From IMG/VR virus record IMGVR_UViG_2526164632_000028: DNA of 15,265 nt; one strand, given 5' to 3'. Made by a program: the position numbers and the translations under genes. The stretch comes from a virus. Its lineage: Duplodnaviria > Heunggongvirae > Uroviricota > Caudoviricetes. This document shows, piece by piece, positions 1 through 15,002 of the stretch (position 1 is the first letter of the stretch; each line of letters begins with the position of its first letter). The notes beneath the pieces were generated by a model, which saw nothing but the letters and a program-made list of their open reading frames with translations, had not been told where the DNA came from and did no database searches.

Positions 1-1119
1 TTAAATAACCAACTTAACCCATTCCTGACCTCGAGTATCGTTATAGCGATCGGTGGTTGCCTGGACTTTATGTCCTAGTAATGTTTTTGTATCGATACCC
101 TGTGCACGGTACAGCCGTTCTGATAGAGAGCGTTGTTCATGAAATGTTGGCGGAGTTTTTCCTGCTGGTGGAATTATCCCAGCCAGATCCCGTGCTTTGG
201 CAAAGTAGTCGCTCAGGTTGTCTTTACTCATCGGCTTCGGTTGTTTCTGGTGCCGACTATGGATTAGATATGGACTTAATATTCTGTCTCGGCACCCATC
301 AATAACTTCTTTTAACGTTATCCCAATGGCATCACAGCGTAGTGTAAGCGGTAACGCCAGACGCATTCTGGTTTTTCCCTGGGTGATATGCAAGTGTTCG
401 TTCCACACATCTGAAAAACGCATGTGGCAAATGTCATCACGGCGCTGACCAGTAACAATCGCAAGAAGCATTGCGTTACGGATAAAGTGTTTTTCAGGCG
501 TTGCATTGTAAATTTTTTGCCAGTCTTCCATGGTGAGCCTGGCTCTGGTTACTTTAGGGATCGGTTTACGGGTAGCCTCCGGAGGATTCCATCCAGGAGG
601 AACTTCCCCTGCATGCTGTGCTTCTTTATAAATATCAACCCATAATCCACGATTTACTCTCGCTGTGCTGACCATGTCTTTATCCAGCCACTCATCCAGT
701 ATTAATGCAAAGTCTCTTACTTCCAGTTCTTTCAATGGGTGGTTTCCCAGACGGGAAACCAGGTATGCAGCCATTCGAGTTTTTTCTTTGTGAGTTGTAG
801 CTGCAATATCTCCATTTTTCAGTCGCGTGTCCTGTATTTTCAGATATCGATCAACCCATGCCTTTAATCTGATACCCCGACGTTTTGTTGCTGACGGACT
901 TTCATCAATTTTGCGCATGAAATATTCAGCTTCTGCTGCAGCTATTCGCTGATTGGCTGTGGAAGCGATTTTTTCTGCCTTACCTTTGTCTGTTCCGAGT
1001 CCGTGAAATTTTCCAGTCACAGGATTTTTATACTGGTAGTAAACTCTGCCAGTTCTGCGATCAAACTTTTCGTAAAGACCGGCTACGTCAGTGCTGTTTT
1101 TTCGTGGCCTCGGTGACAT
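1..1119 (-). CDS. int: site-specific tyrosine integrase, lambda Int family
   Basis: 372-aa ORF with stop at 1-3. C-terminal region ...PPTFHEQRSLSERLY...LGHK...TDRYNDTRGQEW parallels the lambda Int catalytic region (HxxR, LGHK, catalytic Tyr). Start is overlapped by the upstream xis ORF, as in lambda. Confidence 0.9.
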   Translation of the reverse strand: MSPRPRKNSTDVAGLYEKFDRRTGRVYYQYKNPVTGKFHGLGTDKGKAEKIASTANQRIAAAEAEYFMRKIDESPSATKRRGIRLKAWVDRYLKIQDTRLKNGDIAATTHKEKTRMAAYLVSRLGNHPLKELEVRDFALILDEWLDKDMVSTARVNRGLWVDIYKEAQHAGEVPPGWNPPEATRKPIPKVTRARLTMEDWQKIYNATPEKHFIRNAMLLAIVTGQRRDDICHMRFSDVWNEHLHITQGKTRMRLALPLTLRCDAIGITLKEVIDGCRDRILSPYLIHSRHQKQPKPMSKDNLSDYFAKARDLAGIIPPAGKTPPTFHEQRSLSERLYRAQGIDTKTLLGHKVQATTDRYNDTRGQEWVKLVI

Positions 1120-1418: not shown

Positions 1419-3890
1419 TTAAAAATCAGCCTGACTCGGGATCAGTTTTTGCCAGATAACTGAAACGTATTTTGCCTGGTAACGGGCGTCATCAAGTGCA
1501 TTATGGCGCTCACCTTCGAATGGAATAGCCGTTCTGGCATCGAAGTCTATGGCTTTCCCCAGCTCAACGATTGTGCGTACATCGCGATCGTTGTAGTAAC
1601 GCCACGGGCAGGGGATCCCCTGCCGTTCGTATGAACGGCGCAAAATCGTGTTGTCGAAGTTGGCTCCATTTCCCCAGACCTGAACAAAAAATTCACCGGA
1701 GTTTTCGTCGATAAATTCCCGCAATTGTAACAGTGCATCATCTAACGGGATTTCATCGGTCATAATGGCAGATTGCGCTTCGCGTGATTGCTTAAGCCAC
1801 CATTTAATGGTGTCCCGATCAATGACTCCGCCAGCAGTTTCCAGATCGATAGTCTTACTAAATTCCGGTCCCATATCTCCGGTTTGCGGATCGAAAAATA
1901 TTGCACCTATTGAGATAATCGGGGCATCGGGATTTTTTCCCATGGTTTCAAGGTCGATCATCAGATGAATCCCCGCTCTGCTGGTGGATGTGAGATTATG
2001 ATGACCGTTCGCCTTAATTAAGGGATCTGACGCCTCGCCAGTTTCACTATCGCTGGCATGATGCTGATTGCCGCCAGTGTTCTCCTTGTGCTGATGCGCA
2101 GTGCCTTCCATTTCCTCCGGATCATTTTCCTGAACTTCAGGCTGATTCTCTCCATCGAATATTTCCTGGTATGTTGCGTCACCCATCACCGCACCACAAT
2201 CAGGGCAGTTGCCGCCACCGCTCTGACCGCAGGCGGTGCAGATCTTTTCCGGTTCCTGTTGCACTACTGGTTCAGGTTGTTTCGTTTCTGGCTCGTTTTG
2301 TTGCGTATTTGGGCTGTTTTGTTCCGCTTTCTGGTCGTTCTGTTCCGTTTCTTGCTGGTTCTGGTTCACAGAATCGCGGGTCTGGATCCCCTTAACCCAT
2401 TTCGGATCATTCGGGTCGCTAATCCCTTCAACAAATTCACCACGTGATACTGCAAGCAGTTCATCGGCGTCAGGCTGGCTGATATTGGCTGCCTGCATAA
2501 TTTTGTTTACTTCGTCAGCGGTAACTTTTACTGACCCTGGTTGTGCGGTCGTGTCAGATGCACCAGTATTTTGTTGTGAACCTGAGTATGTACCGTTTTT
2601 GCGGGCGAAATATTCTTCTTTCGTGATTTCAGTAGCCCCAGCAGACAGCGCCTTATCCAGACCAGAAAGTTTGTTTGCGCGACCGTATTTTTCGCCATCC
2701 TTGTCGGTGAAGAGGAAGTAGAACGGCCCCTCACGCTCTACAGATGGTTCAGCTTCCGGCGCGGTTTCATTTTTTGGGATATCAGATACCTCAGTTTCCA
2801 CTGCATCAGTTTGTGTTTCTGATGACTGGAGAACATCAACAGTGCCCAGGTCTGTTTCTTCATTCTCAAACACGCCCTTTGTCGTCAGGTATTCGCAGAT
2901 ATATTTGTTCAGTGCTACGGGATCTTTGTGAATGTCGATCGAACGTTCACGGACAAGGCCAAAAATAGTCTGGCGGTCGTAGCGAAGGGCATCAGGCTGT
3001 TTGCGCATTGATGCCGAGATACGCTTCCAGTCTTCGCGGCCGTTGTCGATAACTTCATTTTTTGCCCAGCGATGGATGCTGCCGTCAATGTTTCCGGCAT
3101 CCACATCACCAGGCCAGAGAGCGTAGGCCAGTTCGTCATCCAGTGTTTTCCATGTCTGCTTGTATTCGCGATGAATGGCAGCAATGACCGGGCTGATTTT
3201 TCCTGTTGAATTTTCAGTGTACTGTTGATTGGCTCTGGCGCGGGCGAGATCAACAACAGACGTGTATTTTCCGGTTTCCTTGCGTTCGCCTTCGCGACGT
3301 TTTTTCCAGATGCGCATCTCTGCCTGAATTTCGGGCCATTTAGCACCAGGAATACATTTATGCTTAACCCACCCAATGGCGTGCAACTTAAGCTCCGGAT
3401 ACATGGCGTTAACTTCTGGCATTTTCATCAACGCTTCAACGATATGTCCGTCGAATGTTGCCATGTCTTCCTGCAACAATTCCTGTGCGCTAATAACCAT
3501 ATCAACGGTGATGTTTTCACATGTGTCGAACTTAACCATGACAGCGTTCTGTACTTCAGGGGCCAGCTTGTCAAAAGTGACGTTCATCGGATAGGATTCA
3601 GTCTCAACCGGGACAAAAGAAGCAGACTCCTCATCCCAGCGGTTTTCCTGCATATATTCAGCATCCCATGAATCGAGGGCAGGGCGGGGTATGCCAGGTT
3701 TATCCTCGCAGACAATAAATTTATAAGCGCAGTCCTGAGCTGCCGGATAATGTTCCAGGAATTGCCAGTGAAATTTTGCGCGGGCGCGACATTCATCACC
3801 GGCTTCAATGGCAGTGGCTACAGCGACTGCACCTTCTTCCTTTATTGCCTGTTCGTCCGGAATGGCGGCGCAAATAAAGACTTTACTCAT
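1419..3890 (-). CDS. large prophage exonuclease: N-terminal domain of unknown function, acidic Q/E/N-rich linker with zinc ribbon, C-terminal DnaQ-like DEDDh 3'-5' exonuclease domain
   Basis: 823-aa ORF. C-terminal motifs MIDLETMG (Exo I, D-x-E), WGNGANFD (Exo II) and HNALDDARY (Exo III, H-x4-D). Central CTACGQSGGGNCPDCG zinc-ribbon motif in a low-complexity acidic linker. Sits in the lambda exo / Rac recE position; the K-12 ydfE fragment downstream of ydfD may be a truncated homologue (inference). Confidence 0.85.
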   Translation of the reverse strand: MSKVFICAAIPDEQAIKEEGAVAVATAIEAGDECRARAKFHWQFLEHYPAAQDCAYKFIVCEDKPGIPRPALDSWDAEYMQENRWDEESASFVPVETESYPMNVTFDKLAPEVQNAVMVKFDTCENITVDMVISAQELLQEDMATFDGHIVEALMKMPEVNAMYPELKLHAIGWVKHKCIPGAKWPEIQAEMRIWKKRREGERKETGKYTSVVDLARARANQQYTENSTGKISPVIAAIHREYKQTWKTLDDELAYALWPGDVDAGNIDGSIHRWAKNEVIDNGREDWKRISASMRKQPDALRYDRQTIFGLVRERSIDIHKDPVALNKYICEYLTTKGVFENEETDLGTVDVLQSSETQTDAVETEVSDIPKNETAPEAEPSVEREGPFYFLFTDKDGEKYGRANKLSGLDKALSAGATEITKEEYFARKNGTYSGSQQNTGASDTTAQPGSVKVTADEVNKIMQAANISQPDADELLAVSRGEFVEGISDPNDPKWVKGIQTRDSVNQNQQETEQNDQKAEQNSPNTQQNEPETKQPEPVVQQEPEKICTACGQSGGGNCPDCGAVMGDATYQEIFDGENQPEVQENDPEEMEGTAHQHKENTGGNQHHASDSETGEASDPLIKANGHHNLTSTSRAGIHLMIDLETMGKNPDAPIISIGAIFFDPQTGDMGPEFSKTIDLETAGGVIDRDTIKWWLKQSREAQSAIMTDEIPLDDALLQLREFIDENSGEFFVQVWGNGANFDNTILRRSYERQGIPCPWRYYNDRDVRTIVELGKAIDFDARTAIPFEGERHNALDDARYQAKYVSVIWQKLIPSQADF

Positions 3891-3982
3891 TTTGTTTTAC
3901 CTCATTACAGATTTAAGGGTGAACAAATCCCTGCCATTGCTGGCATATAAGAATGAAATCGGATGTTTATTACGGAACTGTT

Positions 3983-4174
3983 TTAAAGACCTGCCGGGAT
4001 TTCGTTATTATCCTGGTGAATAACTTTATCGACCGGGTAACAGTTACCGGGAATTTTCTGTTCGGTTGCTGCAGTCACACACTCCTGCATTGTCCTGTGA
4101 ACACTGACTGCAATATCAACTGGCTCTCCGGAAACAAGAAAAACTGTCAGAACAAGTGCAAATGCTGTATTCAT
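3983..4174 (-). CDS. ydfD: YdfD-like small protein with N-terminal hydrophobic segment (lysis protein family of the dicB operon)
   Basis: 63-aa ORF MNTAFALVLTVFLVSGEPVDIAVSV...NNEIPAGL. Its ATG overlaps the dicB stop (ATGA). Size, position after dicB and sequence match my recollection of Qin YdfD. The tabulated ORF (to 4228) has an unlikely 18-aa extension. Confidence 0.7.
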   Translation of the reverse strand: MNTAFALVLTVFLVSGEPVDIAVSVHRTMQECVTAATEQKIPGNCYPVDKVIHQDNNEIPAGL

Positions 4175-4359
4175 TGCCAGCATCCTTTTTGTATCGGACG
4201 TAAACGGGCCAGCATTGAAAGAATGCATATTTTATTTAATAACTCCCGTTCGTGTTTTCTCTTGTTAATGGCATCTTCAGTAAATACAGGGTTACTGATA
4301 GTGACACCAATTTCAAAACAACCTTCAGACGTATTAACGTTTGGTAATAACGTTTCCAT
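4171..4359 (-). CDS. dicB: cell division inhibitor DicB
   Basis: 62-aa ORF METLLPNVNTSEGCFEIGVTISNPVFTEDAINKRKHERELLNKICILSMLARLRPIQKGCWQ, matching E. coli DicB as I remember it along nearly its whole length. SD GAGGA upstream of ATG at 4359. DicF-like sequence lies immediately upstream on the same strand. Confidence 0.85.
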   Translation of the reverse strand: METLLPNVNTSEGCFEIGVTISNPVFTEDAINKRKHERELLNKICILSMLARLRPIQKGCWQ

Positions 4360-4528
4360 TATCGCGTCCTCAACAATGAATTTTGTGATGCGGTGCCTGG
4401 TGCCTCCAGGTGACGTTAACCAGTTAACAATTAACGCCGGATACAGAGAATCCACCCATAACACTGTTTTTGGTTTTAACTGTTCCGCGTGCGCTCAGCC
4501 GCATTCACCACATCACAAAATTCACTTT

Positions 4529-4586
4529 AAAAAGGGCGGCAGAGCAGTCACGGAGTAAAACTGATACCGCCAAACGTCACCAGAAA
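4529..4586 (-). ncRNA. dicF: DicF small regulatory RNA (ftsZ-targeting sRNA processed from the dicB operon transcript)
   Basis: Minus-strand sequence TTTCTGGTGACGTTTGGCGGTATCAGTTTTACTCCGTGACTGCTCTGCCGCCCTTTTT matches my recollection of E. coli DicF, ending in a GC stem plus U-tract. Located just upstream of dicB as in Qin. Exact ends are uncertain by a few nt. Confidence 0.7.
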
Positions 4587-5927: not shown

Positions 5928-6602
5928 TCAGTCTAAGTATTGATGTATTTGTGAAACTTTACCTTTAATGGTGTAACCACCATTCAGTTCGATGGGTTTG
6001 TAAAGCGGATTCAGTGACAACAAATAGATGTTTGGTCCGTCAATCGCAACTTTTTTTAGTGTTACGTTTGGCGTTCCTTCCAATTGGATTAAGATTATTT
6101 TTCCCACCAGTTCTCTAATGTTACTTGAGCATGGTGTGATCAGCACGGTAGATCCGTCGGGGATGGTTGGGAGGCCGTTAGAGTTTGTCATCGCATCTCC
6201 CTCAACATGCAATAAAAAAGAGTTTTCAGCGGTTTTTGTCATGACATCAACCCAGTTATTAATACCAGGAATCTTGGTTACTGGACAACTCATATCCCAA
6301 TAACCAGCCTGTTCCCACGTTAAAACGGGCAACCGGGCGATGTTGTCACTAATGTAAGGGTACTGATTCAGACGCAGATCATCGGTTTTATCGTGACAGT
6401 CCTTTCCATAAAGAATCCATTCAGGAGATTTGGAAAGCAATTTTGACAGTAGATACAAATTCTCACCGTCAGGTTTTGAAGAGCCATTTTCCCATTTTGT
6501 TACGGATACACGAGATATGCCGATTGCTTTCGCAACCTGCTGTTGGGTTAATCCAACGTCTTTTCGACGATTCCGAATACGTTCGCTGATAGTGTTTTTC
6601 AT
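5928..6602 (-). CDS. cI: prophage repressor, P22 C2 / lambda cI type (N-terminal XRE-type HTH, C-terminal S24 LexA-like domain) with Ala at the catalytic Ser position
   Basis: Start taken at ATG 6602 (MKNTISERIRNRRKDVGLTQQQVAKAIGISRVSVTKWENG..., P22 C2-like N-terminus). The tabulated ORF to 6701 begins with TTG and has no RBS. C-terminal domain aligns to the lambda cI S24 region (VEGDAMT vs VEGNSMT; VTLKKV vs FTFKKL). Ala-Gly (QAGY) is present in the linker. Confidence 0.85.
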   Translation of the reverse strand: MKNTISERIRNRRKDVGLTQQQVAKAIGISRVSVTKWENGSSKPDGENLYLLSKLLSKSPEWILYGKDCHDKTDDLRLNQYPYISDNIARLPVLTWEQAGYWDMSCPVTKIPGINNWVDVMTKTAENSFLLHVEGDAMTNSNGLPTIPDGSTVLITPCSSNIRELVGKIILIQLEGTPNVTLKKVAIDGPNIYLLSLNPLYKPIELNGGYTIKGKVSQIHQYLD

Positions 6603-6667
6603 GTAACCAATGTTACTACCAAGTGATGTTGCTATGGTTGACATTGTTATGTAACTATTGTTACCCT
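6603..6667. promoter_or_regulatory. immunity-region operators and divergent promoters (OR/pR/pRM-like)
   Basis: Two palindromes GTAAC-N4-GTTAC at 6603-6616 (abutting the cI start) and 6651-6664. Rightward -35 TTGACA at 6638-6643 with -10 TACCCT near 6662-6667 overlapping the second operator. A leaderless leftward cI transcript with -10 TAACAT (6615-6610) is possible. Confidence 0.45.
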
Positions 6668-6693
6668 TCTGCTCGAAATAACAGGAGAGTTTT

Positions 6694-6908
6694 ATGTTCA
6701 AAGATGATGTTCTGCGCTATTTCAAAAAAAGCGACTAGTAGCTGAGGCTCTTGGAATTTCACATGTGGCTGTTGTGCGGTGGAAAGCAGTTATTCCCAAA
6801 CTTCGCGCAATGGAACTGGATGAAATTACTAACGGTGAATTGAAATACAACCCAGAACTTTACAAGAAGCAGGATAGCACCTCGAACGAAGGAAAGAATG
6901 ATTCATGA
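6694..6908 (+). pseudogene. cro: cro/dicC-like HTH regulator interrupted by a frameshift at an A7 tract
   Basis: ATG 6694 with SD AGGAGAG; reading frame MFKDDVLRYFKKSD stops at 6736-6738. The -1 frame continues (KK)RLVAEALGISHVAVVRWKAVIPKLRAMELDEITNGELKYNPELYKKQDSTSNEGKNDS to TGA at 6906-6908, which overlaps the next gene ATG (ATGA). One extra A in the A7 run (6724-6730) restores a 72-aa Cro/DicC-like protein. Confidence 0.55.
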
Positions 6909-7330
6909 AAATCAAGCATGAACACATCCGCATGGCGATGAATGTCTGGGCGCATCCGGACGGCGAAAAAGTACCGGCTGCGAAAATTACCAAAGCGTAT
7001 TTCGAGCTGGGAATGACGTTCCCGGAACTGTATGACGACAGCCATCCGGAAGCCCTGGCCCGTAATACCCAGAAAATTTTCCGTTGGCTGGATAAAGACA
7101 CCCCTGATGCTGTTGAAAAAATGCAGGCTCTGTTACCGGCGATCGAAAAGGCGATGCCGCCTTTGCTGGTGGCCCGTATGCGCAGCCACAGTTCTGAATA
7201 TTACCGTGAGATCGTCGAACGGAGGGATCGGCTGGTGAAGGATGTCGATGATTTTGTTGCGTCAGCGGTTGTTTTGTATGACCAGATGAATCGCGGCGGC
7301 CCGGCAGGGAATGCTGTGGTGATGCACTAA
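6905..7330 (+). CDS. CII-like / YdaT-family early regulatory protein (putative)
   Basis: 141-aa ORF MKIKHEHIRMAMNVWAHPDGEKVPAAKITKAYFELGMTFPELYDD... in the lambda cII position between cro and the replication genes. N-terminus resembles Rac YdaT as I recall it (unverified). Confidence 0.55.
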   Translation: MKIKHEHIRMAMNVWAHPDGEKVPAAKITKAYFELGMTFPELYDDSHPEALARNTQKIFRWLDKDTPDAVEKMQALLPAIEKAMPPLLVARMRSHSSEYYREIVERRDRLVKDVDDFVASAVVLYDQMNRGGPAGNAVVMH

Positions 7331-7352
7331 AAGCACGGTGTTCGGGGGTTTT

Positions 7353-8315
7353 ATGAGCAGCAAGCTTCATGGTCTTGTCTGGGAAGGGTGCGCCTTCACC
7401 GGCATGATCTTATCCAGGGTGGCGGTTATGGCCCGTCTTGCAGACTACAGCAATGACGAGGGCGTGTCATGGCCTGCCATTGAAACTATCCGGCGTCAGA
7501 TCGGTGCAAGAAGTGAATCCACAGTGAAATCGGCTATTGCAGAACTGGCGAAAGAGGGCTGGCTGACGAAGGAAGAGCGTAAGGTCGGTGGGCGTAATGT
7601 AAGCAATATCTATCGGCTTAATGTGGAAAAACTCGAAGCAGCTGCGGCGGCGGCGCGTGAGTCATATAAACCGAAAAGAAAAATTAGCCCGGCAAAAAAT
7701 GACCCGTTAACAGTTGACCCGTCAAATATTGACCCCTCAACGGTTGACCCGTCAAATTTTGATGGATCAACTGTTGATAAAAAACTGCCGATTAGGGGGG
7801 CGATGATTGACCCCGATCCGTCAGTATTAAAACCTGATCCGTCAGATAAAAGATCTTCTTGTCCGGACGCTTCGCAACCGGACCCGCAGACGGCTGAACA
7901 GGATTTTTTAACCCGACACCCTGACGCGGTTGTGTTCAGTGCGAAAAAACGCCAGTGGGGAAGTCAGGAAGATTTGGTGTGCGCACAGTGGATCTGGGGA
8001 CGAATCGTGAGTCTTTACGAGCAGGCGGCCAGCGATGATGGCGAGATCACTAGACCGAAAGAACCCAACTGGACAGCATGGGCCAATGACGTTCGCACAA
8101 TGCGGATGCTGGATGGCAGAACTCACAGACAAATTTGTGAAATGTTTGGGCGTCTCCAGCGGGATTCGTTCTGGGTAAAAAACATCATGAGTCCGGCAAA
8201 ACTCCGGGAAAAATGGGATGAACTGGTTATCCGCCTGGGGCGTTCGCCTGCGCAGCGTTGCGTGAATCACATTTCTGAACCGGACACTGAAATACCGCCG
8301 GGATTCAGGGGGTGA
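7353..8315 (+). CDS. replication initiator (O-like): N-terminal winged-helix DNA-binding domain, internal iteron-encoded DPxxV repeats, DnaT-like C-terminal domain
   Basis: ATG 7353 with GGGGG SD (tabulated ORF starts at GTG 7338). N-terminal ...SWPAIETIRRQIGARSESTVKSAIAELAKEGWL... C-terminus ...VNHISEPDTEIPPGFRG resembles the E. coli DnaT C-terminus (...SEPDSQIPPGFRG, from memory). Followed immediately by the DnaC-like gene. Confidence 0.8.
   Translation: MSSKLHGLVWEGCAFTGMILSRVAVMARLADYSNDEGVSWPAIETIRRQIGARSESTVKSAIAELAKEGWLTKEERKVGGRNVSNIYRLNVEKLEAAAAAARESYKPKRKISPAKNDPLTVDPSNIDPSTVDPSNFDGSTVDKKLPIRGAMIDPDPSVLKPDPSDKRSSCPDASQPDPQTAEQDFLTRHPDAVVFSAKKRQWGSQEDLVCAQWIWGRIVSLYEQAASDDGEITRPKEPNWTAWANDVRTMRMLDGRTHRQICEMFGRLQRDSFWVKNIMSPAKLREKWDELVIRLGRSPAQRCVNHISEPDTEIPPGFRG
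7699..7785. repeat. iteron array (putative replication origin) inside the initiator gene
   Basis: Six units with exact 15-bp period starting at 7699, 7714, 7729, 7744, 7759 and 7774; core TTGACCCGTCAA is itself palindromic (TTGAC/GTCAA). Followed by A-rich GATAAAAAACTG. Encodes the peptide repeat DPLTV-DPSNI-DPSTV-DPSNF-DGSTV. Confidence 0.6.
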
Positions 8316-8321
8316 CGTGTC

Positions 8322-9068
8322 ATGAAAAACATTGCGGCAGTTGGGGTTCTTGAACGTATTCGCAGACTTGCACCACAGGGGTCGGTTCCACCGTACCGGA
8401 CGGTGGAGGAGTGGCGGGAATGGCAACTTGCTGAAGGACGAAAACGCAGCGAGGAGATTAACCGCCAGAATCGCCAGTTGCGGGTGGAAAAAATCCTGAA
8501 TCGTTCGGGCATCCAGCCTCTGCACAGCAAATGCTCGTTTGCAAATTATCAGGTGCAGAACGACGGGCAAAAATACGCGCTGAGCCAGGCCAAATCCATA
8601 GCTGACGAACTGATGACCGGGTGCACGAATTTTGTGTTCAGCGGTAAAACCGGCACCGGGAAAAATCACCTTGCAGCGGCGATGGGCAACCGGCTGATGG
8701 TGAAGGGGCGCAGCGTGATTATCGTCACCGTGTCTGACGTCATGAGCGTGTTGCATGACAGCTACGACAACGGCAAATCCGGGGAAAAATTTTTACAGGA
8801 GCTTTGCGGGGTTGATTTGCTGGTCCTGGATGAAATAGGCGTTCAGCGGGAGACGAAAAACGAGCAGGTGGTATTGCACCAGATAATTGATCGCCGGACA
8901 GCATCACTGTGCAGTGTCGGGATGTTAACAAACCTGAATCATGCCGCAATGAGTACGCTTCTTGGTGAGAGGATTATGGACCGCATGACCATGAACGGTG
9001 GTCGATGGGTGACGTTTAACTGGGATAGCTGGCGTCCAAATGTCAGCAATATGAGGGTTGTGAAGTAA
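8322..9068 (+). CDS. dnaC: DnaC-like replicative helicase loader (AAA+ ATPase)
   Basis: 248-aa ORF. Walker A FSGKTGTGKNHLAAAMG and Walker B DLLVLDEIGVQ; collinear with E. coli DnaC from N-terminus (MKN...) to C-terminus (...WVTFNWDSWR). Start is 7 nt after the initiator stop. Confidence 0.9.
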   Translation: MKNIAAVGVLERIRRLAPQGSVPPYRTVEEWREWQLAEGRKRSEEINRQNRQLRVEKILNRSGIQPLHSKCSFANYQVQNDGQKYALSQAKSIADELMTGCTNFVFSGKTGTGKNHLAAAMGNRLMVKGRSVIIVTVSDVMSVLHDSYDNGKSGEKFLQELCGVDLLVLDEIGVQRETKNEQVVLHQIIDRRTASLCSVGMLTNLNHAAMSTLLGERIMDRMTMNGGRWVTFNWDSWRPNVSNMRVVK

Positions 9069-9089: not shown

Positions 9090-9860
9090 ATGGAAACCGT
9101 ATCTGACGCACTGAAAGCACTGAAAAAAGCCTCTTCACATGTGGTGGCAGCTCGCCTTGGAATCAGTCGTGAAGAGGCTGTCAACGAGCTGTGGGAACTC
9201 AAAAGAAATGGCGTCGTTGATAAAACTGGTCACACCTGGTTTCTGGCTGGCGAAGGTGAATCCCGGGTAACCGAAGAGCGGCCAGTAAAATCTGAAGCAC
9301 AGGATATGCTGACCGGGGAGGTCGAACAAAAAGTTACCGCAGACATGATGATTGAGTTTATCGGTCAGGATGGGGCTAAAACGTGTGAGGAACTGGCGGG
9401 TAAGTTCGGTGTCAGTACTCGCAAGGTTGCTTCCACGCTGGCGGTGGTAACCGCAACGGGGCGGCTGGCACGCGTTAATCAGAACGGTAAATTTCGTTAC
9501 TGCATGCCGGGCGATAATTTACCAGCAGAGCCGAAAGCCGCGCTGGTAACGGAAAGTGATGGTAAGGCCTTTCCTCAGCCAGCAGGTGCTGCGTTACCAG
9601 GCCGGGAAGCCGCAACACAGGAAGAAATTAAAACAGAAACTGTGGCGGACATTGTGCAGTCGTTGCCATCGTTTACCGAAACGCAAGCAGATGAGCTGAT
9701 TTTTCCGTCCCTGCGCAGGGCAAACCTGGCGCTGCGCAGGGCGAAAAGTGATGTTCAGAAGTGGGAGCGAGTCTGCGCCGCGCTGCGGGAGCTGAACAAG
9801 CACCGGGATATTGTTCGACAGATTACTGATTCTTCCCGCCGTGTTGTATCGGAAAAGTGA
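9090..9860 (+). CDS. hypothetical protein with two winged-helix-like repeats
   Basis: 256-aa ORF; ATG 9090 with SD GGAGG. Internal repeats AARLGISREEAVNELWELKRNGVVDKTGHTWFL and AGKFGVSTRKVASTLAVVTATGRLARVNQNGKFRYCM. No homology recognised. Confidence 0.65.
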   Translation: METVSDALKALKKASSHVVAARLGISREEAVNELWELKRNGVVDKTGHTWFLAGEGESRVTEERPVKSEAQDMLTGEVEQKVTADMMIEFIGQDGAKTCEELAGKFGVSTRKVASTLAVVTATGRLARVNQNGKFRYCMPGDNLPAEPKAALVTESDGKAFPQPAGAALPGREAATQEEIKTETVADIVQSLPSFTETQADELIFPSLRRANLALRRAKSDVQKWERVCAALRELNKHRDIVRQITDSSRRVVSEK

Positions 9861-10403: not shown

Positions 10404-10616
10404 ATGTCAAATACACAGAAAATTATTAACACTGAAAAATATAACGAGTGGGTGAAAAAATTCTCTGAGCAGATTTTTAAAATTACTGGCGACGAGAATG
10501 TGGCAAAAAATGAATTGGAACCGTGGACACCTGAAGGAAACGCACCAAATTATTGCTGGTGGGAGGTTGATCCGGTTGATGCTGCAAATGAAGCCATGAG
10601 TTACCACAACGATTAA
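10404..10616 (+). CDS. hypothetical small protein (70 aa), first gene of the cargo island
   Basis: ATG 10404 with SD GGAGG 7 nt upstream; MSNTQKIINTEKYNEWVKKFSEQIF...; AT-rich codon usage distinct from flanking modules. Confidence 0.55.
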   Translation: MSNTQKIINTEKYNEWVKKFSEQIFKITGDENVAKNELEPWTPEGNAPNYCWWEVDPVDAANEAMSYHND

Positions 10617-10621
10617 TGTCG

Positions 10622-10868: not shown

Positions 10869-11132
10869 ATGGCAACTTTGACAAAAAAAGAACGGGCATG
10901 GTTGAACGAATTACAGGAAGTTCTTGATCGCTGTCCATCACCGAAAAAAATTGGCTTTTACACCATTGGCGATAAAAGCATTTACCTGTATGACCTACGC
11001 CGCATGGATGAAATCATGGAGGCTCTTGATAATCGTTCGTCGATGGATTGGTGTGTTGCTGTTCATGATATGAATGCAGGGTTTGATGAAAAGATTTTGT
11101 TCCCCTCATCAGTTGAAAGCACTGCGGGTTAA
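10869..11132 (+). CDS. hypothetical protein (87 aa)
   Basis: ATG 10869 one nt after the upstream stop, with SD AAGGAAAA; MATLTKKERAWLNELQEVLDRCPSPKKIGFYTIGDKSIYLYDLRRMDEIMEALD... Confidence 0.55.
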   Translation: MATLTKKERAWLNELQEVLDRCPSPKKIGFYTIGDKSIYLYDLRRMDEIMEALDNRSSMDWCVAVHDMNAGFDEKILFPSSVESTAG

Positions 11133-11286: not shown

Positions 11287-11620
11287 GTTAAGCAATATCG
11301 TTTTATTTCCGGTAAAAGAGGATGACCCTCGTAATCAGGTTAATTTTCTTTATGAGCCATCGGAAAGACCATATTGTCATCACGCCTCTGTCCGGGTTGA
11401 CGAAAAAGAGCGTCAGGTCCGCTGTAAAATCTGCGGTGCAGTTGTGGAACCATTTGACTGGATGCTCTCTGTGGCGAAAAGAGAAACCAGACTGGCAGAT
11501 GATGTAAGGCTCTTGCGTCAGGAGGAGCGGGAAAGGCGAAAAAATATAGAAAAGCTAATTCAGATTGAGCGTAACGCGAAAGCGCGGATACGCAGGGCGA
11601 CAAAATCCAGAACTGAATAA
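11264..11620 (+). CDS. hypothetical zinc-finger-like protein with basic coiled-coil C-terminus (118 aa)
   Basis: ATG 11264 with SD AAGGAG (alternative GTG start at 11207). Motif YCHHASVRVDEKERQVRCKICG, then an Arg/Lys/Glu-rich tail LLRQEERERRKNIEKLIQIERNAKARIRRATKSRTE. Confidence 0.55.
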   Translation: MEIKPEDELSNIVLFPVKEDDPRNQVNFLYEPSERPYCHHASVRVDEKERQVRCKICGAVVEPFDWMLSVAKRETRLADDVRLLRQEERERRKNIEKLIQIERNAKARIRRATKSRTE

Positions 11621-11668
11621 TTAAATTTAGCTCTGTTAAAAATTTAATCCTTAACCGGAGGGATTTCT
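11600..11668 (+). repeat. module-junction repeat, copy 2
   Basis: See copy 1 at 10333-10403. Copy 2 begins within the last codons of ORF 11264-11620 and is followed by the second SD-hairpin leader. Confidence 0.55.
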
Positions 11669-11684
11669 GCACCCTCAGAACATC

Positions 11685-11713
11685 AGGAGGCCGCCCGAAA
11701 GGGCGGTAGTTAA
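11685..11713 (+). promoter_or_regulatory. SD-plus-hairpin translation leader, copy 2, preceding ORF 11714
   Basis: AGGAGG at 11685-11690; CCGCCC-GAAA-GGGCGG at 11691-11706; ATG at 11714. Confidence 0.5.
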
Positions 11714-11896
11714 ATGCGAAAGTTTAAAATAATTATTGAAACGGGAATAGCCGGTGGAGATTTCGAGGATGAATTCGAAGTGGATGATGATGCGACGCCT
11801 GATGAAATACATGACGAAGCAAAAGATATTTTCTTTAACTACTGCAATTACTCATATCACGAAATAAAAGACGAAGAGGAAGAACAAAATGGCTGA
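11714..11896 (+). CDS. hypothetical highly acidic small protein (60 aa)
   Basis: MRKFKIIIETGIAGGDFEDEFEVDDDATPDEIHDEAKDIFFNYCNYSYHEIKDEEEEQNG, Asp/Glu-rich; preceded by the SD-hairpin leader. Confidence 0.5.
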   Translation: MRKFKIIIETGIAGGDFEDEFEVDDDATPDEIHDEAKDIFFNYCNYSYHEIKDEEEEQNG

Positions 11897-12065
11897 TTTT
11901 GGTTCAACTAAATACAACGTCGGTTTTGAAGAATGGCATGAACTGTTAATGGACTATGCAGAGTTACGTGGTGGCAGTGCTGCTGATGCTGAAGCATGGC
12001 GTGATGATTATGAAGCAGGAAAAACTCCGGTCGAAGCATATTGTGATGAGTGGGGCGATGAATGA
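11889..12065 (+). CDS. hypothetical acidic small protein (58 aa)
   Basis: ATG 11889 lies 5 nt before the upstream stop (ATGGCTGA); MADFGSTKYNVGFEEWHELLMDYAELRGGSAADAEAWRDDYEAGKTPVEAYCDEWGDE. Confidence 0.5.
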   Translation: MADFGSTKYNVGFEEWHELLMDYAELRGGSAADAEAWRDDYEAGKTPVEAYCDEWGDE

Positions 12066-12377
12066 GCGAGGTTAATTATCAGGAAGGGCATGAAACGGCG
12101 GGGCAAGCAAAAACAGTGGCATGGCGATATCGCTACGTGAAAAAAAGGCGTTACGGACTTTCAGGGGAAGTAGTGGTCTGGTGACTGGAAATATGTACCG
12201 AAAAAAGAGGATTGTAACGACAGGCCGAACTATGAAATTCAGGCCTTATTCACTGCCCCGCCAGTCCCGGTTACATCAGAAGAACTGGTTAAAGCTGTGC
12301 ACTTTTATGAACAACTAAAATGCGAAAATCCACCAGCATCCGGAAACCTGATTACAGATTCCCAGATAAGGCAATGA
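12062..12377 (+). pseudogene. hypothetical gene apparently split by a +1 frameshift near 12174-12184
   Basis: ATG 12062 overlaps the upstream stop (ATGA); frame gives MSEVNYQEGHETAGQAKTVAWRYRYVKKRRYGLSGEVVVW then TGA at 12182-12184. The +1 frame is open from 12174 to 12377 with protein-like content (...DWKYVPKKEDCNDRPNYEIQALFTAPPVPVTSEELVKAVHFYEQLKCENPPASGNLITDSQIRQ) but no start codon. Confidence 0.35.
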
Positions 12378-12547
12378 GCTACCTGGCGCAGAACGGGCTG
12401 ATAAGTATGGGGAATGTTTTACGATGAATATTTAGACTAAAGAGTTTGTAACGCTATGTAAGTGATTTTTTCTGGTTTAGATATTTATATGTCCGGCTAA
12501 ATTGAGGTGTGTTTAAATGTTATTGCACATTGATTGTAGGGGGAATA

Positions 12548-13306: not shown

Positions 13307-13579
13307 ATGGTGCACAAAACCAAATTTCACAATTCTGATACCGACCTTGCCATCCGGCATGGGCGGCGTTCACACGCATTTAAAACCGACTGGTACCAAC
13401 ACCCACCATGTACTGAAGAACAGGCCGAATGGCTAATTCATAACTACCGCAGACGCGGATACGAGATTAAGAAAGCCCTCAGCCTCGATTATCGTCACTG
13501 GATAATCTATGTCAGGCTCCCTTATTCCGAACGCCCACCGCGTCCGTCCCGCACATTCCAGCAACGCATCTGGAGGTAA
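13307..13579 (+). CDS. rem: Rem-like small basic protein
   Basis: 90-aa ORF MVHKTKFHNSDTDLAIRHGRRSHAFKTDWYQHPPCTEEQAEW... between hok and the ydfU-like gene, as in Qin; its stop overlaps the SD of the next gene. Named by position and size only. Confidence 0.5.
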   Translation: MVHKTKFHNSDTDLAIRHGRRSHAFKTDWYQHPPCTEEQAEWLIHNYRRRGYEIKKALSLDYRHWIIYVRLPYSERPPRPSRTFQQRIWR

Positions 13580-13580
13580 C

Positions 13581-14636
13581 GTGCGGGTATTACTTCGACC
13601 TGTTCCGGTACCGGAACTTGGGCTGGTGGTGCTAAAACCGGGCCGTGAATCCATGCAGGTATTTCATAACCCTCGAGTTCTGGTGGAGCCGGAACCGAAA
13701 AGCATGCGCGGTCTGCCGTCCGGAGTCGTTCCTGCTGTTCGCCAGCCGCTGGCGGAGGATAAATCATTACTGCCATTTTTCAGCGATGAGCGGGTGATTC
13801 GTGCTGCTGGTGGTGCTGGTGCATTGTCTGACTGGCTGTTACGCCACATTAAATCCTGCCAGTGGCCTCATGGTGACTACCATCACAGTGAAACCGTCAT
13901 ACATCGTTACGGTACCGGCGCGATGGTGTTGTGCTGGCACTGCGACAACCAGCTGCGTAACCAGACTTCCGAATCACTCGGGCAGCTTGCTCACCAAAAC
14001 CTGTCAGCATGGATGATTGATGTCATCCGCCACGCAATGAATGGCACGCAGGAGCGGGAATTATCGCTGGCTGAATTATCCTGGTGGGCAACCATAAATA
14101 ACGTAGCGGACGCACTACCGGAGACGGTGTTACGTCGTTCACTGGGATTACGCGCGGAAAAAATTCGCTCAGTATACCGCGAGAGCGACATCGTGCCGGG
14201 AGAGCAGACCGCCACCAGCATGCTGAAGCAGCGCACAAAAAATATTGCGCTACTGCCTCACGCCCACCAGCAAAACCCGCCACAGGAAAAGACGGTGGTA
14301 AGCATTGCCGTTGATCCGGAGTCACCGGCTCAGTATCTCCAGCGCCAGAAACCACGACGGGAAGAGATGCCTGTATACACGCGTTGGGTAAAAACGCAGA
14401 AATGCATGACGTGTGGTAATCAGGCAGATGATCCGCATCACATCATTGGTCATGGACTGGGAGGGATGGGAACAAAGGCTGATGATTTGTTTGTTATTCC
14501 GCTGTGCCGTAAATGCCATAGCGAACTACACGCCGGGGTAAAAGATTTTGAAGAAAAACACGGCAGCCAGCTGTTGTTGCTGATTCGTTTTTTAATGCAC
14601 GCGAGAAATTCGGGTGTCCTGAAGTGGAAAGCATGA
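13581..14636 (+). CDS. ydfU: YdfU-like DUF968 protein with HNH-like zinc-finger motifs
   Basis: GTG 13581 with SD GGAGG 4 nt upstream (tabulated ORF starts at ATG 13509, no RBS). Motifs CWHCDNQ and CMTCGNQADDPHHIIGHGLGG...CRKCHSELH. Stop TGA is immediately followed by the rusA ATG. Confidence 0.75.
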   Translation: MRVLLRPVPVPELGLVVLKPGRESMQVFHNPRVLVEPEPKSMRGLPSGVVPAVRQPLAEDKSLLPFFSDERVIRAAGGAGALSDWLLRHIKSCQWPHGDYHHSETVIHRYGTGAMVLCWHCDNQLRNQTSESLGQLAHQNLSAWMIDVIRHAMNGTQERELSLAELSWWATINNVADALPETVLRRSLGLRAEKIRSVYRESDIVPGEQTATSMLKQRTKNIALLPHAHQQNPPQEKTVVSIAVDPESPAQYLQRQKPRREEMPVYTRWVKTQKCMTCGNQADDPHHIIGHGLGGMGTKADDLFVIPLCRKCHSELHAGVKDFEEKHGSQLLLLIRFLMHARNSGVLKWKA

Positions 14637-15002
14637 ATGACTGAACGCATAGAATTTGTTTTGCCTTACCCGCCAACGGTGAACACTTACTGGCGACGTC
14701 GTGGCAGCACATATTTTGTATCAAAAGCCGGTGAGCGTTATCGCCGTGATGTGGCGCTTATTGTTCGCCAGCAGCGGCTGAAATTAAACCTGTCCGGAAG
14801 GCTGGCGATAAAGATTATTGCAGAGCCACCGGATAAACGTCGTCGTGACCTGGACAATATCCTGAAAGCACCACTGGATGCGCTGACGCATGCCGGACTT
14901 CTCATAGACGACGAGCAGTTTGATGAAATCAATATTGTGCGCGGTCAGCGCGTTCCTGGGGGACGGCTGGGCGTGAAGATTTACAAAATTGAGAGTGAGT
15001 GA
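14637..15002 (+). CDS. rusA: Holliday junction resolvase RusA
   Basis: 121-aa ORF MTERIEFVLPYPPTVNTYWRRRG...DKRRRDLDNILKAPLDALTHAGLLIDDEQ...VPGGRLGVKI, collinear with E. coli RusA including the conserved Asp residues of the RRRDLDN segment; typical nin-region position before Q. Confidence 0.9.
   Translation: MTERIEFVLPYPPTVNTYWRRRGSTYFVSKAGERYRRDVALIVRQQRLKLNLSGRLAIKIIAEPPDKRRRDLDNILKAPLDALTHAGLLIDDEQFDEINIVRGQRVPGGRLGVKIYKIESE

Follow-up and report, generated by a model that had tools for sequence, protein, structure and literature searches.

The DNA analysed here (hereafter the window, 15,265 nucleotides in full) is part of an E. coli Rac/Qin-like lambdoid prophage. A 601-bp query spanning both genes of interest (11600-12200) matched the E. 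coli CFSAN061770 chromosome at 100% identity; in that genome the prophage is interrupted by IS4 and IS3, and several of its genes are frameshifted. The following features were recognized in the window:

1-1119, minus strand: integrase
1419-3890, minus strand: 823-aa exonuclease VIII-type protein
4534-4585, minus strand: DicF antisense RNA (Rfam, 76.7 bits)
5928-6701, minus strand: cI/LexA-like repressor
6905-9068, plus strand: YdaT-like, O-like and DnaC-like replication genes
9090-9860, plus strand: DUF1627 gene, followed on the same strand by a DUF977 gene and a run of small ORFs
11642-11713, plus strand: conserved leader of ORF1, about 70 nt, delimited by sequence and predicted fold
11714-11896, plus strand: ORF1, 60 aa (ATG at 11714, TGA at 11894-11896)
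11889-12065, plus strand: ORF2, 58 aa (ATG at 11889, TGA at 12063-12065)
12062-12427, plus strand: ORF3, third gene of the coupled string, here a frameshifted pseudogene whose ATG overlaps the ORF2 stop codon
12816-12987, plus strand: sok antitoxin RNA of a hok/sok locus (Rfam, 106.7 bits)
13509-14636, plus strand: NinG-like DUF968 gene
14637-15002, plus strand: RusA

ORF1 and ORF2 are nin-region genes: they follow the O- and DnaC-like genes on the same strand and precede the NinG-like gene and RusA. Our scan revealed no promoter-like or terminator-like sites next to them on their own strand. From this nin-region layout we infer that the two genes are co-transcribed with the delayed-early functions, and their position suggests early expression. 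The DicF and sok RNAs are both expected in a prophage of the Qin/Rac type. RefSeq flags frameshifts in two neighbouring genes (at about 10406-10617 and 10870-11132) as well as in ORF3; these three damaged genes, together with the IS4 and IS3 elements, indicate that the prophage is decaying while ORF1 and ORF2 are still intact.

The first-pass annotation had described two Asp/Glu-rich ORFs with aromatic residues and an overlapping start and stop, and all of these properties were present as claimed. Asp and Glu make up 33% of ORF1 (net charge -15, pI 4.05, 8 aromatic residues or 13%) and 28% of ORF2 (net charge -12, pI 4.05, 9 aromatic residues or 16%). When all 124 window ORFs of at least 40 aa were ranked by net charge per residue, ORF1 (-0.25) and ORF2 (-0.21) were the most acidic by a factor of two, the next ORF reaching -0.10. 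The two genes overlap by 8 nt (ATGGCTGA), and ORF2 overlaps ORF3 by 4 nt (ATGA). In the identical E. coli prophage, RefSeq lists ORF1 as WP_001224662.1, a 'DUF7167 family protein', and ORF2 as WP_000753057.1, a 'hypothetical protein'.

Both ORFs are real genes under purifying selection. Pairwise dN/dS of ORF1 ranged from 0.03 to 0.27 (relatives at dS 0.1-0.5), and that of ORF2 from 0.02 to 0.17 among close relatives from intact modules (dS 0.1-0.5); the ORF2 copy in the decayed module of Rac 442/2 (locus L131) gave 0.46. Distant pairs are likewise constrained, with dN of 0.12-0.28 and saturated dS. These low ratios, the RefSeq annotation and the confident predicted folds described below show that ORF1 and ORF2 are not chance ORFs.

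A decaying prophage with IS4 and IS3 insertions and three frameshifted neighbours is the kind of place where spurious or decayed, functionless ORFs might be acidic by chance. We consider this explanation of ORF1 and ORF2 extremely improbable. Their dN/dS is far below 1, both families reach several phage groups and bacterial orders, both proteins have confident structure predictions, and the two are the most acidic ORFs of the window. The spread of the families and the dN/dS values already refute it.

The leader of ORF1 consists of AGGAGG (11685-11690), a 7-bp GC hairpin with a GAAA loop (11691-11708) and AGTTA, directly followed by the ATG. AGGAGG is its only strong Shine-Dalgarno sequence and stands 23 nt from the start codon, with the hairpin in between, an arrangement similar to the split ribosome-binding site of T4 gene 38. 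The predicted hairpin showed no compensatory base changes, so the structure stands without covariation support. This leader recurs in front of a DUF4014 gene in an O157:H7 prophage and, in Rac-SA53, ahead of a site disrupted by IS1; phage ArgO145 has kept AGGAGG and the hairpin but no other part of it. Its occurrence ahead of other genes suggests that the leader is a portable cassette or a recombination linker.

ORF3 is annotated by RefSeq as 'frameshifted; internal stop' in the identical prophage as well (L002, 9463-9828). An intact version of 119 aa is found on contig L018 (2103-2462), and the protein weakly matches phrog_660.

Two catalogued protein families

ORF1 is a member of the Pfam family DUF7167 (PF23768; E 7.9e-15, 55.1 bits, gathering cutoff 24.4). 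Its residues 2-53 align to positions 1-60 of the 60-position profile, and nearly all of its close relatives carry a precomputed PF23768 match. It also matches phrog_1997 (E 9e-31). Compared with DUF7167/PHROG 1997, ORF1 is a typical member that shows no differences. Searches of Pfam, NCBIfam and PADLOC with ORF1 returned DUF7167 and nothing further, and the literature searched contains no mention of this family.

AlphaFold2 predicted a beta-beta-alpha-beta arrangement for ORF1 (pLDDT 78.7, from a shallow alignment of 10 sequences), with strands at residues 2-9, 16-23 and 46-51 and a helix at 29-39. The protein ends in a poly-acidic tail, KDEEEEQNG. Net charge was between -7 and -15 in ten DUF7167-type proteins compared, one of which is an Enterococcus protein under the Pfam cutoff, and all ten except the Xenorhabdus member have an acidic C-terminal tail.

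Relatives of ORF1 occur in both temperate and virulent phages. In a temperate Klebsiella phage the DUF7167 gene follows an Ead/Ea22-like gene. In virulent Klebsiella Guernseyvirinae it is located inside the replication module, together with genes for a helicase-primase, an exonuclease, a Gp2.5-like SSB and a polymerase, where a DUF7167 gene of 55-56 aa overlaps the start of a 454-aa DUF2800/PD-(D/E)XK exonuclease gene (L132 and L133, each at 3001-4525). In phage 37P2 the small DUF7167 gene is mislabelled 'PD-(D/E)XK phosphodiesterase'. Enterococcus Herelleviridae carry a relative whose Pfam score is sub-threshold but whose alignment is obvious. The gene upstream of it in Enterococcus phage MDA2 (orf174; L134, 2471-3013) is annotated as an exonuclease; we dropped this lead because Pfam identifies the product as a DUF3850/ASCH protein.

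ORF2 belongs to PHROG 519 (E 5.5e-22), its residues 1-58 aligning to positions 76-137 of the 143-position profile. The C-terminal 60-70 positions of this profile are matched by ORF2 and by all relatives tested, including the distant ones and the genes of Ackermannviridae. PHROG 519 comprises 261 phage proteins and is a core gene in Kuttervirus and Taipeivirus. Pfam and NCBIfam contain no family for ORF2, even when all 41 aligned relatives were searched, and PADLOC gave none either.

We searched 1.8 billion representative proteins exhaustively with HMMER and obtained only 62 representatives related to ORF2 at E<=1e-3, almost all of them stand-alone proteins of 50-65 aa. They share the motif F-EEW(H/Y)..L...A...GGS.AD..AWR.DY(D/E)AGKTP.EA(W/Y).DEWG, in which the AWR.DY.AG(K)TP segment is nearly invariant. 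AlphaFold2 predicted a three-helix bundle for ORF2 (pLDDT 87.2, 41-sequence alignment; helices at 13-27, 34-42 and 47-55). Acidity is a property of the whole family: median net charge is -10 (range -16 to -4), and about 11 alignment columns are at least 70% Asp or Glu. The alignment also shows a conserved aromatic core made up of F13, W16, L20, A24, W37, Y41 and W55. The relatives of ORF2 that Foldseek returned from BFVD, in Erwinia, Dickeya and Pseudomonas phages, were all uncharacterised.

Among Enterobacterales, the named hosts of ORF2 relatives are E. coli, Shigella, Salmonella, Enterobacter, Pectobacterium, Proteus and Xenorhabdus; outside this order we found relatives in Oligella, Halomonas, Aquitalea and a Thiotrichaceae MAG. 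A genome scan for related loci found 5 genome loci. The genomic positions are diverse. In Enterobacter the gene is located either after Ead/Ea22 and before xis-int or in the nin region, and in Salmonella and Scandinavium it overlaps the end of a P2-type gpA. The Oligella relative stands between SSB and DUF551 genes, and that of Xenorhabdus bovienii after ERF-SSB. In P22-like pL operons the relative is found between N and cIII, once together with GamL-RecT, while on viral contigs relatives adjoin RecT/YqaJ-type genes.

In one of these settings, a Salmonella P2-like prophage, an nSTAND1/AAA_16 (Avs-like) gene is present between the gpA-ORF2 relative and the portal gene (L008, 3868-5085). It stands two small genes further down from the ORF2 relative, at the site known as the P2 defence hotspot.

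With tblastn, relatives of ORF2 were detected in 198 of 50,697 phage records, and 176 of these were under 60% identity. Among the matches listed, the latter came mostly from virulent Ackermannviridae of about 155-160 kb (Kuttervirus, Taipeivirus and Ag3-like phages). At the three Ackermannviridae loci inspected, a gene of 64-68 aa is located 1-4 genes downstream of the major head gene. ORF2 shares the three-helix motif and the acidity with PHROG 519 and represents its temperate-phage version, of 58 aa and in the nin region, whereas the Ackermannviridae versions are 64-68 aa long and follow the major head gene. The sole mention of phrog_519 in the literature searched is its listing in 2022, for Kuttervirus, as a possible anti-CRISPR by AcrHub/PaCRISPR, which is a prediction by machine learning only (PMC9409062); searches of the literature by accession and by peptide string found nothing.

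A single lineage of phages carries the ORF2-type domain fused to another domain. In Escherichia phages EP_H11 (L138, 2506-3162) and vB_EcoM_IME392 it is joined to NADAR. The EP_H11 protein has 218 aa: its N-terminal part is a NADAR domain (Pfam E 7e-27), and its last 55 aa form the ORF2-type three-helix domain. Such fusions were present in 2 of the 646 phage records with a NADAR match. Phage NADARs (AdfN), including those of T5-like phages, remove the ADP-ribosylation that DarT1 places on DNA and in this way counter DarTG1 (PMC11825919; PMC11543638). ORF2 itself differs from these enzymes: it lacks a NADAR domain and is much too short for an enzyme.

ORF1 and ORF2 together and apart

The earlier description of ORF1 and ORF2 as a pair is correct within E. 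coli, where they travel as one DNA module, but it does not extend to the families, which elsewhere are largely separate and stand apart at most loci. Among 5426 complete E. coli genomes, ORF1 DNA was found in 1871, ORF2 DNA in 1904 and the contiguous pair, counted where a single place matched 80% or more of the 352-bp query, in 1750. In Stx2a phages such as ArgO145 the pair is located, at 97% identity, in the early-left region between two ead/Ea22-like genes. It is from this contiguity in 1750 genomes and the joint move in ArgO145 that we conclude that the genes travel together. As one module is involved, the genome counts reflect a single, nearly identical piece of DNA and not independent events.

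The E. coli-type module was also observed in Actinobacillus phage vB_Apl-pPE4 (H5; 93.7% DNA identity) and on contig L018, assigned to a 'Collinsella sp.' MAG (95% identity of the ORF2 protein). Since Actinobacillus and Collinsella are unlikely hosts, contamination with E. coli prophage DNA, or its misbinning, probably accounts for both cases.

Outside E. coli, DUF7167 was absent within 2-4 kb of most of the diverse ORF2-family loci and was not found near the ORF2-family genes of the Ackermannviridae inspected. Conversely, the Klebsiella and Enterococcus DUF7167-type genes that we inspected had no ORF2 relative within about 3 kb. In several prophages ORF1 is truncated, start-less or inactivated, and ORF2 is intact alongside. 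The separation at most loci and the broken copies of ORF1 next to intact ORF2 led us to conclude that DUF7167 and PHROG 519 are two independent families, loosely associated at best, and not an obligate pair. The statistics behind this association come from a few dozen independent loci.

Two loci show adjacency of another kind. In Xenorhabdus budapestensis (L013, 3001-3360) a DUF7167 gene comes immediately after an ORF2 relative, in the reverse order to that in the window. In Pectobacterium aroidearum (L145, 1835-2177) an acidic ORF of 57 aa and the ORF2 relative share an overlap of identical length, 8 nt; this ORF could not be confirmed as a DUF7167 member, as it scores 9.4 bits on the DUF7167 profile and has no Pfam match. 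The adjacency in Xenorhabdus and Pectobacterium may point to a loose functional association.

We also weighed the possibility that ORF1 and ORF2 form an obligate two-protein unit, that is, a complex or a functionally coupled pair whose members work only jointly. The 8-nt start/stop overlap would fit such a unit, and so would the high proportion of contiguous pairs in E. coli relative to the counts of either gene, the relocation of the whole in Stx phage ArgO145, the reversed neighbours in Xenorhabdus budapestensis and the small acidic ORF of Pectobacterium with its identical overlap. Nevertheless, we consider the obligate unit improbable. Most of the diverse ORF2-family loci have no DUF7167 gene nearby, the Ackermannviridae, Klebsiella and Enterococcus loci inspected hold one family only, truncated ORF1 accompanies intact ORF2 in several prophages, the Pectobacterium neighbour barely registers on the DUF7167 profile, and the E. 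coli counts stem from one nearly identical module.

Possible roles of the two proteins

On the basis of their composition, ORF1 and ORF2 had been proposed in the first-pass annotation as candidate DNA mimics or anti-defence proteins. In a check of folds and sequences against Ocr, ArdA and anti-CRISPR families, as well as Gam, no match reached significance. Proteins of the Ocr, ArdA or KlcA type were not found for either ORF in Pfam or NCBIfam at E<=1 or among PDB sequences at E<=10, and profile searches of PDB sequences with both families gave chance-level matches only. The fold matches of ORF1 and ORF2 were under the level of homology, and the top ones were generic: RAM/ACT-like domains and helical subdomains of tRNA synthetases or clamp loaders. 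Searches of Pfam, NCBIfam, PADLOC and PDB sequences revealed neither homology to a validated anti-CRISPR family nor a catalytic or DNA-binding signature.

No Aca-type HTH regulator gene adjoins ORF1 and ORF2, which are flanked by a gene for a Zn-ribbon protein on the upstream side and by a frameshifted gene on the downstream side. PADLOC matched neither ORF1 nor ORF2, nor any of the seven flanking proteins included in the scan; the one protein with matches, weak and sub-significant (Csa3/CARF, E ~1e-3), was the upstream DUF1627 protein (9090-9860). The labels of DNA mimic and anti-restriction protein were not supported by any test that we ran, and both proteins stand as candidates for such roles. 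Circumstantial support for an anti-defence role comes from the NADAR fusion, the family-wide acidity and the machine-learning prediction of an anti-CRISPR, and the location of ORF2 relatives in accessory slots of early operons is a mild pointer in the same direction.

The anti-restriction DNA mimics Ocr and ArdA and the RecBCD inhibitors Gam and T7 gp5.9 resemble ORF1 and ORF2 in being small, very acidic, phage-encoded and early, but no significant match in sequence or fold was obtained. Ocr and ArdA are larger, elongated helical dimers, while T7 gp5.9 and phi29 p56 are examples of DNA mimics as small as ORF1 and ORF2. Members of both families have 55-68 aa, and no member examined has a pI above 5.3. 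Among the closest known systems we also count the RNA polymerase inhibitor T7 Gp2, the antitoxin T4 Dmd and the anti-CRISPRs AcrIIC3, AcrIC9 and AcrIE2. ORF2 was also considered as a substitute for Gam. We down-weighted this candidate because a P22-like phage carries GamL together with an ORF2 relative, which argues that ORF2 is not simply a Gam replacement.

The explanation that we favour, tentatively and at somewhat less than even chance, is that ORF1 and ORF2 are two unrelated accessory genes for small, acidic, folded binding proteins, which act as inhibitors, decoys or adaptors and are encoded in the nin operon. The genes would be co-transcribed and translationally coupled within the delayed-early (nin) operon of the Rac/Qin-like prophage. 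Each product would fold alone, ORF1 as a DUF7167 domain with an acidic tail and ORF2 as the three-helix bundle of PHROG 519. Each would then bind one-to-one to a host or phage protein with a part in DNA metabolism or immunity, at a positively charged and probably nucleic-acid-binding surface, and would thus serve as a small inhibitor, decoy or adaptor, not as an enzyme or a DNA-binding protein. The two would be independent of each other, their pairing in E. coli being that of one recombining DNA module. The fusion to NADAR in EP_H11 and IME392 and the overlap of DUF7167 with the exonuclease gene in Guernseyvirinae point towards DNA metabolism or counter-defence. Against the binder explanation stand the generic fold matches, the restriction of the NADAR fusion to 2 of 646 records and one lineage, and the many copies in decaying prophages; moreover, acidity is common among small phage proteins and not specific to inhibitors.

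The conservation of the ORF2 family across Ackermannviridae and the linkage of DUF7167 to an exonuclease gene make a housekeeping role in replication or recombination a serious rival. ORF1 and ORF2 would then be accessory factors of phage replication, recombination or morphogenesis, such as adaptors of SSB, exonuclease or the replisome, and not counter-defence proteins. The spread of the ORF2 family across Ackermannviridae and the range of DUF7167-type proteins up to Enterococcus could equally mean housekeeping in replication, recombination or packaging. The constant slot of 1-4 genes past the major head gene at the three Ackermannviridae loci inspected, the place of DUF7167 inside the replication module of Klebsiella Guernseyvirinae, its occurrence in phages of Gram-negative and (sub-threshold) Gram-positive hosts, and the ORF2 relatives adjoining SSB, ERF or RecT all fit this explanation. 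In temperate phages, however, both genes are patchy and mobile among nin, exo-xis, pL and P2 post-gpA positions and, like dispensable accessory genes, are often lost or pseudogenised; besides, NADAR, the partner in the one informative domain fusion, is a counter-defence enzyme. On balance we consider housekeeping unlikely, though clearly closer to the favoured explanation than classical DNA mimicry is. The latter, in which ORF1 and ORF2 would be anti-restriction proteins of the Ocr, ArdA, Gam or gp5.9 type, appears rather improbable to us. We give the same low weight to its mechanism, by which the acidic surface would imitate the phosphate backbone and block a restriction enzyme, RecBCD or another DNA-binding nuclease of defence or repair. 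The strong and conserved acidity of both families speaks for it, and so do the existence of mimics this small (T7 gp5.9 and phi29 p56), the frequent proximity of ORF2 relatives to recombination modules (exo/RecT/SSB/ERF) and the exonuclease overlap of DUF7167 in Guernseyvirinae. Nonetheless, no significant match in sequence or fold links the proteins to Ocr, ArdA, Gam or another solved mimic, a P22-like phage carries both GamL and an ORF2 relative, and the most conserved positions of the ORF2 family are mostly core aromatic residues and helix caps.

A more far-reaching version of the inhibitor explanation, to which we assign a probability a little below that of housekeeping, is that PHROG 519 is a widespread counter-defence or host-takeover module and DUF7167 a second, independent inhibitor with a Gp2/Dmd-like fold. 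PHROG 519 would dock on a conserved DNA-binding host protein or on a DNA-modifying immune effector, for example a target or partner of DarT-type ADP-ribosylation or a repair nuclease, and the target of DUF7167 would have to be conserved from Enterobacteria to Enterococcus. This would explain why PHROG 519 is fixed across Ackermannviridae, scattered in temperate early operons and once fused to NADAR.

At present, our results reveal no new kind of system. They place two hypothetical proteins in catalogued families, one of which (that of ORF1) NCBI already names, and show that the 'pair' is not obligatory. ORF1 and ORF2 are thus ordinary 'known unknowns', neither of them new as a sequence family, for which a role as inhibitor or decoy is plausible. 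The module is carried by about a third of complete E. coli genomes, and the phages with an ORF2-family gene, mostly Ackermannviridae, infect Salmonella, Klebsiella and E. coli. Ackermannviridae include phages studied for therapy (PMC9409062). If either protein inhibits a host immune or DNA-repair protein, a new small inhibitor would be gained and several hundred hypothetical phage genes would acquire a function.
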